NCBI RefSeq assembly: GCF_056746865.1
Contig: NZ_CM163382.1
DNA length: 64,000 nt
Reading direction: 5' to 3' (one strand)
Shown: piece by piece, positions 22,238 through 40,482 of the stretch
How the letters are laid out: every line of letters starts with the position of its first letter
Numbering within the stretch: the first letter of the stretch is position 1
Position numbers and translations under genes: made by a program
Notes under the pieces: model-generated
Database searches by the model: none
Told to the model about the DNA's origin: nothing
The model's input: the letters and a program-made list of their open reading frames with translations, nothing else

Positions 22238-22445
22238 GTTCACTGCCGTACAGGCAGCTTAGAAATCGACGGGGTGCGGTAAAACCTTTGCGAACGCGTT
22301 CACTGCCGTACAGGCAGCTTAGAAAGCTGTATTCGGCAAATGAAGTGGATGTTGATGGTTCACTGCCGTACAGGCTGCTTAGAAATTCGTACTTAACGAA
22401 CTGTTGCTCCTCTGCTGGTTCACTGTCGAACAGGCAGATAAAATG
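22238..22445 (+). CRISPR. Type I-F (Ypest-type) CRISPR array: 4 repeats and 3 spacers, with no adjacent cas genes (orphan)
   Basis: 28-bp repeats GTTCACTGCCGTACAGGCAGCTTAGAAA at 22238-22265 and 22298-22325, a one-mismatch copy at 22358-22385 and a degenerate terminal repeat at 22418-22445; 32-bp spacers at 22266-22297, 22326-22357 and 22386-22417. Confidence 0.9.
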
Positions 22446-22844
22446 CGAAAAAAGCTCGTACTTTCGTACGCGCTTTTCTTTAAATATGACGGTGAGGGGG
22501 GGATTGACTCGCTTCGCTCGCCCTGCGGGCAGCCCACTCACTGTGTTCGTGGTCTGTCCAACTGGCTGCGCCAGTTGTCGAACCCCGGTCGGGGCTTCTC
22601 ATCCCCCCTGGAGTGCAATATGCGAAAAAAAAGCTCGCACTTTCGTACGAGCTCTTCTTTGAATATGGCGGTGAGGGGGGGATTGACTCGCTTCGCTCGC
22701 CCTGCGGGCAGCCCACTCACTGTGTTCGTGGTCTGTCCAACTGGCTGCGCCAGTTGTCGAACCCCGGTCGGGGCTTCTCATCCCCCTTGGAGTGCAATAT
22801 GCGAAAAAAAAGCTCGCACTTTCGTACGAGCTCTTCTTTGAATA
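22445..22844. repeat. Tandem direct repeats (~2.3 copies of a ~178-bp unit), each containing the serW terminator plus a ~17-nt copy of the tRNA-Ser 3' end
   Basis: Unit starts gcgaaaaaa(aa)gctcg at 22445, 22622 and 22801; copies 1 and 2 are near-identical over ~175 bp; each contains cggtgagggggggatt, which matches the 3' acceptor/T-arm of serW. Confidence 0.85.
22803..22838 (-). terminator. Putative rho-independent terminator of serW (a copy of this element is present in each tandem unit)
   Basis: On the minus strand, hairpin agctcgtacg-aaag-tgcgagct followed by a T-run, immediately 3' of the tRNA. Confidence 0.65.
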
Positions 22845-22932
22845 TGGCGGTGAGGGGGGGATTCGAACCCCCGATACGTTGCCGTATACACACTTTCCAG
22901 GCGTGCTCCTTCAGCCACTCGGACACCTCACC
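22845..22932 (-). tRNA. serW: tRNA-Ser (anticodon GGA)
   Basis: Reverse complement reads GGTGAGGTGTCCGAGTGGCTGAAGGAGCACGCCTGGAAAGTGTGTATACGGCAACGTATCGGGGGTTCGAATCCCCCCCTCACCGCCA, with long variable arm and encoded CCA. Confidence 0.95.
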
Positions 22933-30185: not shown

Positions 30186-33100
30186 TTGAGCCAGGAATAC
30201 ACTGAAGACAAAGAAGTCACATTGACAAAGTTAAGTAGCGGCCGCCGCCTTCTGGAGGCGTTGCTGATCCTTATTGTCCTGTTTGCCGTCTGGTTGATGG
30301 CTGCCTTACTAAGCTTTAACCCTTCGGACCCCAGCTGGTCGCAAACGGCCTGGCATGAACCTATCCATAATTTAGGTGGGATGCCCGGTGCGTGGCTGGC
30401 AGATACGCTGTTCTTTATTTTTGGCGTGATGGCTTACACCATTCCCGTCATTATTGTCGGCGGTTGTTGGTTTGCCTGGCGTCATCAGTCCAGCGACGAA
30501 TACATTGATTATTTTGCCGTTTCGCTACGCATCATTGGCGTTTTGGCGCTCATCCTTACCTCCTGTGGTCTGGCGGCAATCAACGCTGACGATATCTGGT
30601 ATTTTGCCTCCGGTGGCGTCATTGGCAGCTTACTAAGCACTACGCTACAACCACTGCTACACAGTAGCGGGGGAACTATTGCGCTGCTCTGCGTTTGGGC
30701 AGCGGGCCTGACGCTGTTCACCGGTTGGTCATGGGTGACCATTGCTGAAAAACTCGGCGGCTGGATTTTAAATATTCTTACCTTCGCCAGTAATCGTACC
30801 CGTCGCGATGATACCTGGGTCGATGAAGATGAGTATGAAGATGACGAAGAGTATGAAGATGAAAATCACGGCAAACAGCATGAATCACGCCGTGCTCGTA
30901 TTCTTCGCGGCGCGCTAGCGCGTCGTAAACGGTTGGCGGAAAAATTCATTAATCCGATGGGGCGGCAAACAGACGCTGCGTTGTTCTCCGGTAAGCGGAT
31001 GGATGATGACGAAGAGATTACCTACACTGCACGCGGTGTGGCTGCCGACCCTGACGACGTCCTCTTTTCGGGCAATCGTGCAACGCAGCCAGAATATGAC
31101 GAGTACGATCCATTATTAAACGGTGCGCCAATTACCGAACCTGTTGCTGTAGCAGCTGCTGCTACCACGGCGACGCAAAGCTGGGCTGCACCGGTTGAAC
31201 CTGTGACTCAGACGCCATCTGTTGCCTCTGTTGATGTTGCACCTGCACAACCTACAGTAGCCTGGCAGCCTGTACCGGGGCCACAAACGGGAGAGCCGGT
31301 GATTGCTCCTGCACCGGAAGGTTACCCACAGCAGCCACAATATGCGCAGCCTGCAGTGCAATATAATGAGCCGCTGCAACAACCTGTACAGCCACAGCAG
31401 CCGTATTATGCGCCTGCGGCGGAACAACCTGTTCAGCAACCGTATTACGCAACTGCGCCGGAACAGTCTGCGCAACAGTCGTATTACGCCCCTGCGCCAG
31501 AACAATCGGTGGCAGGTAACGCCTGGCAAGCCGAAGAGCAGCAATCCACTTTTGCTCCACAGTCTACATACCAGACTGAGCAAACTTATCAGCAGCCAGT
31601 CGCTCAGGAGCCGTTGTACCAACAGCCGCAACCTGTTGAACAGCAGCCTGTTGTGGAGCCTGAACCCGTTGTAGAAGAGACAAAACCCGCGCGTCCGCCG
31701 CTTTACTACTTTGAAGAAGTGGAAGAGAAGCGAGCCCGTGAACGTGAACAACTTGCGGCCTGGTATCAACCGATTCCAGAACCGGTTAAAGAACCAGAAC
31801 CGATCAAATCTTCGCTGAAAGCACCTTCTGTTGCAGCAGTACCTCCAGTAGAAGCCGCTGCCGCTGTTTCTCCGCTGGCATCTGGCGTGAAAAAAGCGAC
31901 ACTGGCGACGGGGGCTGCCGCAACCGTTGCCGCGCCAGTCTTCAGTCTGGCAAATAGCGGTGGACCGCGTCCGCAGGTCAAAGAGGGGATTGGCCCGCAG
32001 TTGCCACGACCGAAACGTATCCGCGTGCCAACTCGTCGTGAATTGGCGTCTTACGGTATTAAGCTGCCCTCACAGCGTGCGGCGGAAGAAAAAGCCCGTG
32101 AAGCCCAGCGCAATCAGTACGATTCTGGCGATCAGTACAACGATGATGAAATCGATGCGATGCAGCAGGATGAACTGGCACGTCAGTTCGCCCAGACACA
32201 GCAGCAACGCTATGGCGAACAGTATCAACATGATGTGCCCGTAAACGCAGAAGATGCAGATGCTGCGGCAGAGGCTGAACTGGCTCGTCAGTTTGCGCAA
32301 ACTCAACAACAACGTTATTCCGGCGAACAACCGGCTGGGGCGAATCCGTTCTCGCTGGATGATTTTGAATTTTCGCCAATGAAAGCGTTGCTGGATGATG
32401 GTCCACACGAACCGTTGTTTACGCCAATTGTTGAACCTGTACAGCAGCCGCAACAACCGGTTGCACCGCAGCAGCAGTATCAGCAGCCACAACAGCCGGT
32501 TGCGCCACAGCAGCAATATCAGCAGCCGCAACAGCCGGTTGCGCCGCAGCAGCAGTATCAGCAGCCACAACAGCAGGTTGCGCCGCAGCCACAATATCAG
32601 CAGCCGCAACAACCGGTTGCGCCACAGCAGCAATATCAGCAGCCGCAACAGCCGGTTGCGCCGCAGCAGCAGTATCAACAGCTGCAACAACCGGTTGCAC
32701 CGCAGCCGCAGTATCAGCAGCCACAACAGCCAGTTGCGCCACAGCCGCAGGATACCCTGCTTCATCCGCTGTTGATGCGCAATGGTGACAGCCGTCCGTT
32801 GCATAAACCGACGACGCCGCTGCCTTCTCTGGATTTGCTGACGCCGCCGCCGAGCGAAGTGGAGCCGGTAGATACCTTTGCGCTTGAACAAATGGCGCGC
32901 CTGGTGGAAGCGCGTCTGGCTGATTTCCGTATTAAAGCCGATGTCGTCAATTACTCTCCGGGGCCGGTTATCACTCGCTTTGAACTTAACCTGGCACCGG
33001 GCGTAAAAGCGGCGCGCATTTCTAACTTGTCACGGGACCTTGCCCGTTCACTTTCGACGGTGGCGGTGCGTGTCGTTGAAGTTATTCCTGGCAAACCCTA

Positions 33101-34292
33101 TGTAGGTCTGGAGTTACCGAATAAAAAACGACAAACCGTTTATCTGCGCGAAGTATTGGATAACGCCAAATTCCGCGATAATCCGTCGCCATTAACCGTG
33201 GTGCTGGGTAAAGATATCGCCGGTGAGCCGGTGGTTGCCGATCTGGCGAAAATGCCGCACTTGTTGGTTGCGGGGACTACCGGTTCCGGTAAGTCTGTCG
33301 GGGTGAACGCGATGATCCTGAGCATGCTTTATAAAGCACAGCCAGAAGATGTGCGTTTCATCATGATCGACCCGAAAATGCTGGAGCTTTCGGTTTATGA
33401 AGGCATTCCGCATCTGTTAACGGAAGTCGTTACCGACATGAAAGATGCTGCCAACGCTTTGCGCTGGTGCGTAAATGAAATGGAACGTCGTTATAAGCTG
33501 ATGTCCGCCCTAGGTGTGCGTAATCTGGCGGGTTATAACGAAAAAATTGCTGAAGCCGATCGCATGATGCGTCCGATTCCAGACCCGTACTGGAAGCCGG
33601 GTGACAGTATGGATGCCCAGCATCCGGTGCTGAAAAAAGAACCGTACATTGTGGTGTTGGTGGACGAATTTGCCGACCTGATGATGACGGTAGGTAAAAA
33701 AGTGGAAGAGCTTATAGCACGTCTGGCGCAAAAAGCCCGTGCCGCGGGTATCCACCTCGTACTGGCAACGCAGCGTCCATCGGTTGATGTTATTACTGGT
33801 CTGATTAAAGCGAATATTCCGACCCGTATCGCCTTTACCGTATCCAGTAAGATTGACTCACGTACCATTCTTGATCAGGCTGGCGCGGAATCACTGCTGG
33901 GTATGGGGGATATGCTTTACTCTGGGCCGAACTCCACGTTGCCGGTACGTGTTCATGGTGCTTTTGTTCGCGATCAGGAAGTTCATGCCGTGGTGCAGGA
34001 CTGGAAAGCGCGTGGTCGCCCACAGTATGTTGATGGCATCACCTCCGACAGTGAAAGCGAAGGTGGCGCGGGCGGTTTCGATGGCGCTGAAGAACTGGAT
34101 CCGTTGTTCGATCAGGCGGTGCAGTTTGTCACTGAAAAACGCAAAGCATCAATTTCTGGCGTACAGCGTCAGTTCCGCATTGGTTATAACCGTGCAGCGC
34201 GTATTATCGAACAGATGGAAGCGCAGGGGATTGTCAGCGAACAGGGGCACAACGGTAATCGTGAAGTGCTGGCCCCACCGCCGTTTGACTAA
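30186..34292 (+). CDS. ftsK: DNA translocase FtsK
   Basis: 1368 aa (likely TTG start) [29 protein letters not shown]; N-terminal membrane domain, long PQ-rich linker, C-terminal motor with Walker A GTTGSGKS and winged-helix gamma domain. Confidence 0.95.
32443..32750 (+). repeat. In-frame 39-bp tandem repeat (~8 units) encoding the ([13 protein letters not shown])n linker of FtsK
   Basis: Near-identical 39-bp units cagcagccgcaacagccggttgcgccgcagcagcagtat...; the protein shows 8 consecutive 13-aa units. Confidence 0.9.
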
Positions 34293-36485: not shown

Positions 36486-37799
<1,314 letters not shown>

Positions 37800-37820
37800 T
37801 ACCCAATTTTTCTGAATCTA

Positions 37821-37846
37821 AAAAGCGCCTGCGGGCGCTTTTTTTG
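37821..37846 (+). terminator. Putative rho-independent terminator of serS
   Basis: Hairpin agcgcctgcgggcgct followed by ttttttt. Confidence 0.75.
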
Positions 37847-38037
37847 TCTCCCTTTGATACCGAACAATAATTACTCCTCACTTACACGTAATACTACTTT
37901 CGAGTGAAAATCTACCTATCTCTTTGATTTTCAAATTATTCGATGTATACAAGCCTATATAGCGACCTGCTATAGAAATAATTACACAATACGGTTTGTT
38001 ACTGGAATCAATCGTGAGCAAGCTTGAGTGAGCCATT

Positions 38038-40482
38038 ATGAAAACGAAAATCCCTGATGCGGTATTGGCTGCTGAGGTGAGTCGCCGTGGTTTGGTAAAA
38101 ACGACAGCGATCGGCGGCCTGGCAATGGCCAGCAGCGCATTAACATTACCTTTTAGTCGGATTGCGCACGCTGTCGATAGCGCCATTCCAACAAAATCAG
38201 ACGAAAAGGTTATCTGGAGCGCCTGTACAGTTAACTGTGGTAGTCGCTGCCCGCTACGTATGCACGTCGTGGACGGTGAAATCAAATATGTTGAAACGGA
38301 TAATACTGGCGATGACAACTATGACGGCCTGCACCAGGTGCGCGCCTGTCTGCGTGGTCGTTCCATGCGTCGCCGTGTCTACAATCCGGACCGCCTGAAA
38401 TATCCGATGAAACGAGTCGGGGCGCGCGGTGAAGGCAAATTCGAGCGCATTAGCTGGGAAGAAGCCTACGACATCATCGCGACCAATATGCAGCGCCTGA
38501 TCAAAGAGTACGGCAACGAATCCATCTATCTGAACTATGGCACCGGTACGCTGGGTGGCACCATGACCCGCTCCTGGCCGCCGGGAAATACCCTGGTCGC
38601 TCGCCTGATGAACTGCTGCGGCGGTTATCTGAACCATTACGGTGACTACTCTTCCGCGCAAATTGCGGAAGGTTTGAACTATACCTACGGCGGCTGGGCA
38701 GATGGTAACAGCCCGTCGGATATCGAAAACAGTAAACTGGTAGTGCTGTTTGGTAATAACCCTGGCGAAACGCGAATGAGTGGCGGTGGGGTGACTTACT
38801 ATCTTGAACAGGCGCGTCAGAAATCTAATGCTCGCATGATCATCATCGATCCGCGCTATACCGACACCGGAGCCGGGCGCGAAGATGAGTGGATCCCTAT
38901 TCGTCCGGGAACAGATGCCGCACTGGTTAACGGTCTGGCGTATGTCATGATCACCGAAAACCTGGTGGATCAGGCATTCCTCGATAAATATTGCGTTGGC
39001 TACGACGAGAAAACACTGCCAGCCAGTGCGCCGAAAAATGGTCACTATAAAGCTTATATTCTGGGTGAAGGGCCAGATGGCGTGGCTAAAACGCCGGAAT
39101 GGGCCTCGCAAATCACCGGTGTTCCGGCAGACAAAATCATCAAACTGGCTCGTGAAATCGGTAGTACCAAACCGGCGTTTATCAGCCAGGGATGGGGCCC
39201 GCAGCGTCACGCTAACGGTGAAATCGCAACCCGTGCTATCTCGATGCTGGCGATTCTGACCGGTAACGTTGGTATTAACGGGGGGAACAGCGGCGCGCGT
39301 GAAGGTTCATACAGCTTACCGTTTGTCCGTATGCCGACCCTCGAAAACCCGATCCAGACCAGCATTTCGATGTTTATGTGGACCGATGCCATTGAACGTG
39401 GCCCGGAAATGACGGCGCTGCGTGATGGTGTGCGCGGGAAAGATAAGCTGGATGTGCCGATCAAAATGATCTGGAACTATGCTGGTAACTGCCTGATTAA
39501 CCAGCATTCTGAAATCAACCGTACCCATGAAATCCTTCAGGATGATAAGAAGTGCGAGCTGATTGTGGTTATCGACTGCCACATGACCTCATCGGCGAAA
39601 TATGCTGACATCCTGCTGCCTGACTGCACCGCTTCCGAACAGATGGACTTTGCACTGGATGCATCCTGCGGGAATATGTCTTACGTGATTTTCAACGATC
39701 AGGTGATTAAACCGCGCTTTGAATGTAAGACCATCTATGAAATGACCAGCGAACTGGCAAAACGTCTTGGCGTTGAGCAACAGTTTACTGAAGGCCGTAC
39801 CCAGGAAGAGTGGATGCAGCATCTGTATGCCCAGTCGCGGGAAGCGATTCCTGAACTGCCAACGTTTGAAGAGTTCCGCAAGCAGGGGATCTTTAAAAAG
39901 CGCGACCCACAAGGGCATCACGTTGCTTATAAAGCCTTCCGTGAAGATCCGCAGGCAAATCCACTGACCACGCCATCGGGTAAAATTGAGATTTATTCGC
40001 AGGCGCTGGCTGACATTGCCGCTACCTGGGAATTGCCAGAAGGCGATGTGATCGATCCACTGCCGATCTACACGCCGGGCTTTGAAAGTTATCAGGATCC
40101 GCTGAACAAACAGTATCCGCTGCAGCTTACGGGTTTCCACTATAAATCTCGCGTTCACTCAACTTACGGCAACGTTGATGTGCTGAAAGCGGCTTGCCGT
40201 CAGGAAATGTGGATCAACCCGCTTGATGCCCAAAAACGCGGTATCAACAACGGCGATAAAGTCAGGATCTTTAACGATCGTGGTGAGGTTCATATTGAGG
40301 CGAAAGTGACGCCACGAATGATGCCGGGTGTGGTCGCACTGGGTGAAGGTGCCTGGTATGACCCGGATGCAAAACGTGTCGATAAGGGCGGTTGTATCAA
40401 CGTACTGACCACTCAACGTCCGTCTCCTCTCGCTAAGGGGAATCCGTCACATACAAACCTTGTTCAGGTTGAAAAGGTGTAA
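38038..40482 (+). CDS. dmsA: Anaerobic DMSO reductase catalytic subunit A (molybdopterin)
   Basis: 814 aa; twin-arginine signal VSRRGLVKTTAIGGLAMA; N-terminal Cys cluster CTVNCGSRCPLR. Confidence 0.94.
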   Translation: MKTKIPDAVLAAEVSRRGLVKTTAIGGLAMASSALTLPFSRIAHAVDSAIPTKSDEKVIWSACTVNCGSRCPLRMHVVDGEIKYVETDNTGDDNYDGLHQVRACLRGRSMRRRVYNPDRLKYPMKRVGARGEGKFERISWEEAYDIIATNMQRLIKEYGNESIYLNYGTGTLGGTMTRSWPPGNTLVARLMNCCGGYLNHYGDYSSAQIAEGLNYTYGGWADGNSPSDIENSKLVVLFGNNPGETRMSGGGVTYYLEQARQKSNARMIIIDPRYTDTGAGREDEWIPIRPGTDAALVNGLAYVMITENLVDQAFLDKYCVGYDEKTLPASAPKNGHYKAYILGEGPDGVAKTPEWASQITGVPADKIIKLAREIGSTKPAFISQGWGPQRHANGEIATRAISMLAILTGNVGINGGNSGAREGSYSLPFVRMPTLENPIQTSISMFMWTDAIERGPEMTALRDGVRGKDKLDVPIKMIWNYAGNCLINQHSEINRTHEILQDDKKCELIVVIDCHMTSSAKYADILLPDCTASEQMDFALDASCGNMSYVIFNDQVIKPRFECKTIYEMTSELAKRLGVEQQFTEGRTQEEWMQHLYAQSREAIPELPTFEEFRKQGIFKKRDPQGHHVAYKAFREDPQANPLTTPSGKIEIYSQALADIAATWELPEGDVIDPLPIYTPGFESYQDPLNKQYPLQLTGFHYKSRVHSTYGNVDVLKAACRQEMWINPLDAQKRGINNGDKVRIFNDRGEVHIEAKVTPRMMPGVVALGEGAWYDPDAKRVDKGGCINVLTTQRPSPLAKGNPSHTNLVQVEKV

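Follow-up and report, generated by a model that had tools for sequence, protein, structure and literature searches.

The array of 39-bp repeats in the ftsK gene of the analyzed window (the whole stretch of DNA, 64,000 nt) is very probably the well-known variable-number tandem repeat (VNTR) CVN001, located in the final portion of the FtsK linker, where P/Q-rich 13-residue modules would form part of a flexible tether, and its eight units make up an ordinary allele. A PQ-rich FtsK linker is textbook knowledge, and the locus has been used for the typing of E. coli and Salmonella since the 2000s. The array (hereafter, A2) is thus the already known E. coli MLVA locus CVN001 and is not new.

The ftsK gene and its linker repeat

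The gene, the array and the beginning of the motor are located as follows.

30186..34292, plus strand: ftsK, coding sequence of the DNA translocase FtsK, with a TTG start and 1368 aa (ORF list, Pfam, K-12 alignment and RefSeq)
32442..32750, plus strand: A2, the flagged 39-bp repeat array and VNTR locus CVN001, FtsK aa 753-855, eight modules
32820..33122, plus strand: FtsK alpha domain, the start of the motor (Pfam PF17854, aa 879-979), 24 residues after A2

The window FtsK has the architecture of the FtsK/SpoIIIE family: FtsK_4TM (PF13491) at aa 20-191, FtsK_alpha at aa 879-979, FtsK_SpoIIIE (PF01580) at aa 987-1200 and FtsK_gamma (PF09397) at aa 1303-1363 all exceeded the curated cut-offs. 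As A2 covers aa 753-855 and FtsK_alpha begins at aa 879, the array forms the final part of the linker, 24 residues before the motor. The array lies between FtsK_4TM and FtsK_alpha, and its in-frame position in the linker had been correctly recognized in the preliminary description. The same DNA sequence is annotated as ftsK by RefSeq in strain 118UI (urine, Mexico City; 4107 nt, WP_000077077.1), and the gene order lrp-ftsK-lolA-rarA, based on the neighboring ORFs and the RefSeq context of 23 loci, corresponds to the orthologous position.

In the literature, the FtsK linker is described as P/Q-rich, unstructured and of variable length between species; it is required for full activity, some of its segments are in contact with FtsQ, L, I and Z, and linker mutations result in filamentation (PMC5357621). 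FtsK is reported to be essential in the literature. In a single-sequence AlphaFold model of aa 690-989, coil was predicted across A2, with a pLDDT of about 50 over the full model, alpha domain included, a level so low throughout that disorder and lack of information are inseparable.

Tandem Repeats Finder (TRF) called A2 as 7.9 copies with a period of 39, 87% matches and 0% indels (score 464), confirming the about eight near-identical 39-bp (13-aa) units described from the sequence, whose start had been placed one base off, at 32443. The same interval (32442-32750) was also called as 2.6 copies of a 117-bp period (score 525), which is explained by units 3 and 6 being identical over all 39 nt in the unit difference matrix. 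The self-match of the 309-bp array at lag 39 was 0.874 vs 0.511 +/- 0.027 after shuffling of its codons (z = 13.4), and this signal was the maximum within the 64-kb window. The peptide is composed of seven 13-aa units followed by a final one of 12 aa, the modules end with (Q/P)QY, and P and Q account for 77% of the residues. Typed by their 36-nt cores, the eight units are in the order 0 1 2 3 4 2 5 6. The seventh unit carries a substitution.

32676..32714, plus strand: unit 7 of A2, with CCG>CTG (Pro>Leu) at 32682-32684, giving QQLQQP

A single base separates this unit from type 16, which occurs in the O145 and O157 alleles, and it was the only Leu-containing one among the 114 units sampled.

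Identity with the typing locus CVN001

The published typing primers were mapped to the window, and both sites were found next to the array.

32329..32347, plus strand: CVN001 forward primer site (AACCGGCTGGGGCGAATCC), exact match; primer from PMC8143711 Table 1
32832..32851, minus strand: CVN001 reverse primer site (GGCGGCGGTGTCAGCAAATC), one mismatch

The two primers converge and flank A2 in the window; in K-12 both match exactly and also flank the array. The CVN001 allele is calculated by a published formula as (product - 250)/39 for a 39-bp repeat, and the amplicon of 523 bp in the window gives (523-250)/39 = 7.0, that of 445 bp in K-12 gives 5.0. The CVN001 allele number is therefore one lower than the count of peptide modules, the eight modules of the window being allele 7. 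CVN001 belongs to the generic E. coli MLVA (GECM-7/GECM-10) of Lindstedt et al. 2007, as cited in PMC8143711, PMC3877011 and PMC5217547; no explicit statement placing it in ftsK was found in the searchable literature, and the link is made by primer mapping. The use as a typing marker, which had been put forward as an option, is thus already practice. As a separate observation, the window contains the CVN016 reverse primer sequence as the 5' end of its serW gene, and it lacks that of the CVN016 forward primer.

Copy number in E. coli

In 22 ftsK loci retrieved from E. coli, the A2 modules lying between the conserved flanking motifs IVEPV and DTLLHP were counted, with the following results.

1 unit: L007, L021
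2 units: L009
4.4 units: L022
5 units: L012
5.8 units: L013
6 units: K-12 (L001)
6.4 units: L006, L014
7 units: O157 (L003), ST131-type (L017, L018), L002, L016, L019
8 units: the window and L020 (identical), L004, L005, O145 (L010), L011
9 units: L008, L015, L023

The observed range was 1-9 units, and the non-integer alleles carry one short QQPQY unit, which represents a 24-bp in-frame deletion.

Allele frequencies were obtained from systematic spread samples (40 and 60 rows) of 5,426 complete E. coli genomes, based on BLAST span lengths and with ambiguous classes settled by the fetched loci. Alleles of seven units were found in 17/40 and 26/60 rows (~43%), six units in 14/40 and 21/60 (~35%) and eight units in 4/40 and 5/60 (~8-10%); the remaining rows were spread thinly over alleles of 1, 2, 5 or 9 units and irregular ones. 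A 701-bp query with short flanks left 27 of the 60 rows partly joined and ambiguous, most of which were cleared by longer flanks and the 22 fetched loci, with row H212 still ambiguous. In Swedish ESBL E. coli, the CVN001 alleles 4, 5, 6, 7 and 8 account for 1, 40, 40, 13 and 5% (PMC5217547 Table 3), and the frequencies from our genome samples agree with these PCR-based ones, alleles 5 and 6 being the commonest. The eight-unit allele of the window is a minority but ordinary one, and the K-12 allele is not modal in E. coli. The array had been regarded as expanded, which is true relative to K-12 but not relative to E. coli, where the mode is seven units, eight units have the frequency given above and nine-unit alleles exist.

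A2 was stable within clones: the sampled K-12 derivatives all had 6 units, the sampled O157:H7 genomes all had 7, and CVN001 is monomorphic in ST131 (PMC5217547). The array is therefore a slow marker, and the suggested proneness to slippage applies on evolutionary time scales only, not within these clones.

A second array and the length of FtsK

The ftsK gene of K-12 MG1655 is 3990 nt and encodes 1329 aa, and the lengths of 1368 aa and 1329 aa in the preliminary description agree with the window ORF and the MG1655 gene, respectively. In a global alignment, the window FtsK was collinear with that of K-12, the exceptions being a few substitutions and three indels of 13 aa each. Two of the three gaps in K-12 FtsK fell inside A2 (8 vs 6 units), and one fell in another repeat ~350 residues upstream, with 3 units in the window vs 2 in K-12.

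31395..31505, plus strand: A1, second in-frame 39-bp linker array, about aa 404-440 (TRF, 2.8 copies, 77% matches)

The statement that the window has three units more than K-12 thus holds for the protein but not for A2, as the third unit is in A1, which had been missed. The alignment and unit count that had been proposed as a check showed that copy number differs between strains. K-12 has the A2 unit types 7 8 9 4 10 11, and the comparison with the window indicated two independent single-unit indels rather than one 78-bp event.

A1 had 2, 3 and 4 units (spans of 562, 601 and 640 bp) in 20, 19 and 20 of 60 sampled E. coli genomes, and its unit counts were also obtained directly in the fetched loci. 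A common origin of A1 and A2 was considered and rejected: their consensus units share 23/39 bases in register, and 35% of codon-shuffled controls reach the same.

Outside A1 and A2, 19 of 20 compared ftsK genes were exactly 3657 nt, and the other one had a 3-bp insertion. With the non-array length near-constant, the two arrays account for the full spread of FtsK lengths observed (1277-1394 aa). The same protein length was reached by different combinations of A2 + A1 units, i.e., 1368 aa from 8 + 3 (window, L011) or 7 + 4 (L002, L016, L017, L018), and 1329 aa from 6 + 2 (K-12) or 5 + 3 (L012). As A1 varies independently of A2, the length of FtsK is an unreliable read-out of the CVN001 allele.

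How the array changes

Typing by 36-nt cores distinguished 47 DNA unit types among the 114 A2 units, and adjacent units were 80-100% identical. The O157 allele (0 14 3 4 15 16 6) equals the O145 allele (0 1 26 3 4 15 16 6) minus one unit, and its unit 14 is an exact chimera of the 5' part of unit 1 and the 3' end of unit 26. Duplications were found as well: L015 starts with 0 1 0 1 (78 bp), and L008 has the order 25 26 3 27 26 3 (117 bp). These chimeric and duplicated units would fit either replication slippage or unequal homologous recombination/gene conversion, two routes that are indistinguishable from sequence. By either route, in-register mispairing of the near-identical 39-bp units may add or remove whole modules. 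With a unit length of 13 codons (39 bp) and near-identical units, such gain or loss keeps the reading frame.

Alternative explanations

Several other readings of the array were weighed. An intragenic tandem repeat could in principle make A2 a phase-variable contingency locus, with ftsK turned on and off by changes in repeat number, and the presence of such a repeat is all that speaks for it. The period of 13 codons does not allow for this, all 23 alleles examined are full-length in-frame ftsK ORFs (including the irregular ones with the 24-bp partial-unit deletion), and FtsK is described as essential; the unit length and the intact frames exclude phase variation, to which we give practically no credence. 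The count of eight could also reflect a repeat mis-expanded during assembly, given that among the database matches listed many FtsK proteins are fragments stopping at contig ends near A2, which indicates that short-read assemblies break here. We consider this very improbable for the window, as a 1801-bp query containing A2 matches 175 or more complete genomes with an identity of 99% or higher (those sampled from the top-ranked ones were 100% full-length), and ~175-212 genomes are at this level for queries of 700-1800 bp spanning the array. In addition, A2 is only 309 bp, an independent eight-unit allele with a related unit order is present in O145, and MLVA by PCR sees the same size class in 13% of isolates (PMC5217547). 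A minus-strand ORF across the array (32070-32891, 273 aa) appeared in the mechanical ORF list and might be taken for a real overlapping gene. This ORF translates into a monotonous repeat rich in L and R, as expected from the stop-free complement of a CAG/CCG-rich repeat, and the RefSeq records annotate only ftsK there; an overlapping gene is thus extremely improbable, and the ORF was rejected as a by-product of the repeat lacking stop codons.

A different question is whether the copy number itself is tuned, with the modules as repeated binding or ruler elements and the unit number of each lineage set by selection rather than drift, which we consider unlikely. In its favor, the 47 DNA unit types of A2 encode just 11 peptide types with a pN/pS of ~0.08, and 12 of the 19 variable sites fall on the third base of a codon; the unit peptide is also found in Salmonella FtsK, copy numbers peak at 6-7 with thin tails, and the linker contacts with FtsQ/L/I/Z and the filamenting linker mutants (PMC5357621) point in the same direction. 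A peptide conserved far above its DNA, and recurring as a 13-mer in Salmonella, suggests that the modules may be more than an inert spacer. Against tuning, natural isolates with complete genomes have alleles of 1 and 2 units. Two of these genomes (L007, L021) keep one A2 module each; they have retained different units and are separated by 13 SNPs in ftsK. With two distinct one-unit alleles, most of A2 appears not to be required for viability, unless the repeat collapsed during assembly in both cases. Furthermore, among a few named FtsK fragments, the sequence at the A2 position is P/Q-rich but degenerate in those of Klebsiella and Cronobacter, and no P/Q-rich sequence is present there in Pectobacterium. 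In S. Enteritidis, the swapping of a 28-aa repeat indel between strains was without effect on egg-white survival, the one condition tested (PMC6137255). It is likewise doubtful that the PQ module is a selected element (a multivalent contact or a length ruler) whose copy number in A2 and A1 tunes the coupling of septum closure and chromosome clearance by lineage.

The reading we prefer is that of a flexible spacer, for which copy number is probably near-neutral with regard to FtsK function. The A2 modules would be part of a flexible tether between the membrane/septum anchor (FtsK_N) and the hexameric DNA pump (alpha-beta-gamma). Such a tether would be built of conserved modules, the number of which may be nearly neutral within wide limits.

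Significance

As a discovery the array carries little weight, the feature being long known. Only three points are mildly new: A1 as an independent array, the homoplasy in FtsK size, and a unit peptide that is apparently constrained. A1 is also apparently unexploited. The natural series of 1-9 units, all from viable isolates and with a conserved unit peptide, provides a ready-made test of linker length in FtsK function. For practical purposes, the CVN001 allele should not be read from FtsK length, and assemblies from short reads tend to break at A2.

Comparison with known systems

CVN001 and the window A2 are the same locus, with agreement in primers, 39-bp unit, integer alleles and allele spectrum. 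Nothing substantive differs between them: the numbering is offset by one, and the reverse primer has one mismatch. The linker of K-12 FtsK (FtsK_L) shares the architecture of the window protein (4TM, P/Q-rich linker, alpha, beta, gamma), in which the window has 39 more residues, i.e., two A2 modules and one A1 module.

The phase-variable simple-sequence loci, such as the tetranucleotide repeats of Neisseria and Haemophilus, are likewise intragenic repeats that mutate by misalignment. A2 is unlike these contingency loci and is not a member of the class, as its period is a multiple of three, it does not act as an on/off switch and it is stable within clones.

In Salmonella, SENTR2 is a 39-bp repeat in ftsK with 9.3 copies in S. 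Enteritidis (PMC2430564), and the "variable PQ repeat region" of ftsK is STTR7 (PMC8627665). Two partial Salmonella FtsK sequences (P0010 and P0001) contain 4-9 copies of a homologous 13-mer following HEPLFTP. STTR7/SENTR2 of Salmonella enterica and A2 have in common the gene, the position just before the motor, the 39-bp period, a near-same 13-aa unit and variable copies; the Salmonella locus differs in being from another genus, in its higher copy number in some serovars and in its diverged flanking linker. A2 is the E. coli orthologue, or counterpart, of STTR7/SENTR2.

The CVN001 allele and its variants

The 39-bp in-frame array of the FtsK linker (window 32442-32750, MLVA locus CVN001) carries a substitution in the seventh of its eight units, where CCG is replaced by CTG (Pro>Leu) at 32682-32684, giving QQLQQP. 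Among the 114 units of the 19 alleles sampled, leucine was present only in unit 7 of the window allele, and the change appears to be specific to this allele. About 175-212 complete genomes matched the window's CVN001 allele at a minimum identity of 99%. The alleles of four E. coli ftsK loci fetched for comparison (L006, L013, L014 and L022) were irregular, each with one unit truncated to five residues, QQPQY, by an in-frame 24-bp deletion inside the unit, and PCR sizing of these loci would yield non-integer MLVA calls.

The array is spanned on the opposite strand by an open reading frame.

32070-32891, minus strand: antisense ORF, 273 aa

Its translation is periodic and rich in L/R; we rejected it as a gene, since the lack of stop codons in the repeat almost certainly accounts for it.

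Among the matches listed, the database proteins matching the array region (P0002-P0111) were mostly FtsK fragments from contigs of 0.5-3 kb, and thus, in both E. coli and Salmonella, assemblies from short reads seem to break routinely at this array. Some of the fragment entries hold hundreds of member sequences.

Other repeats in the FtsK linker and a downstream sRNA

Two further repeats were found in the linker, and an sRNA was matched downstream of ftsK.

30822-30863: short acidic D/E/Y repeat at the start of the linker, GATGAA-type, 2.3 copies of an 18-bp period
31395-31505: second in-frame tandem array, 39-bp unit, modules [13 protein letters not shown]
37813-37947, minus strand: match to sRNA STnc130

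The second array has three units in the window versus two in K-12, and its unit number is variable in E. coli, with two, three and four units each found in approximately one third of the complete genomes sampled; we found no MLVA name for it. The acidic repeat encodes [14 protein letters not shown], and its length did not vary among 20 E. coli alleles. STnc130 is a full-length Rfam match (140 bits) located between ORFs 36507-37799 and 38038-40482, which we take to be serS and dmsA based on the K-12 gene order.

Repeats between clpA and serW

22238-22445: small orphan CRISPR array between clpA and serW
22448-22863: tandem repeat of a 179-bp unit (2.3 copies at 97% identity), adjoining the serW 3' end
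22845-22932, minus strand: tRNA-Ser(GGA), serW

Each 179-bp copy includes a partial tRNA-Ser(GGA) 3' end, and the repeat is annotated as 'RtT sRNA' repeats in other RefSeq genomes; the number of copies appears to differ among strains. The reverse primer of the MLVA locus CVN016 corresponds to the 5' end of serW (22909-22932). The forward primer had no match in the window with up to three mismatches allowed, and on this primer search CVN016 would probably fail to amplify from the source strain.

The CRISPR-array region is strongly variable among strains, with only 564 of the 5,426 complete E. coli genomes covering at least 80% of the 911-bp query. No cas genes were noticed near the array. Three 28-nt repeats (starting at 22238, 22298 and 22358) matched Rfam CRISPR-DR4, and a degenerate fourth was recognized by eye at ~22418-22445. 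The matched repeats are spaced by 60 bp, a spacing typical of type I-F CRISPR arrays.
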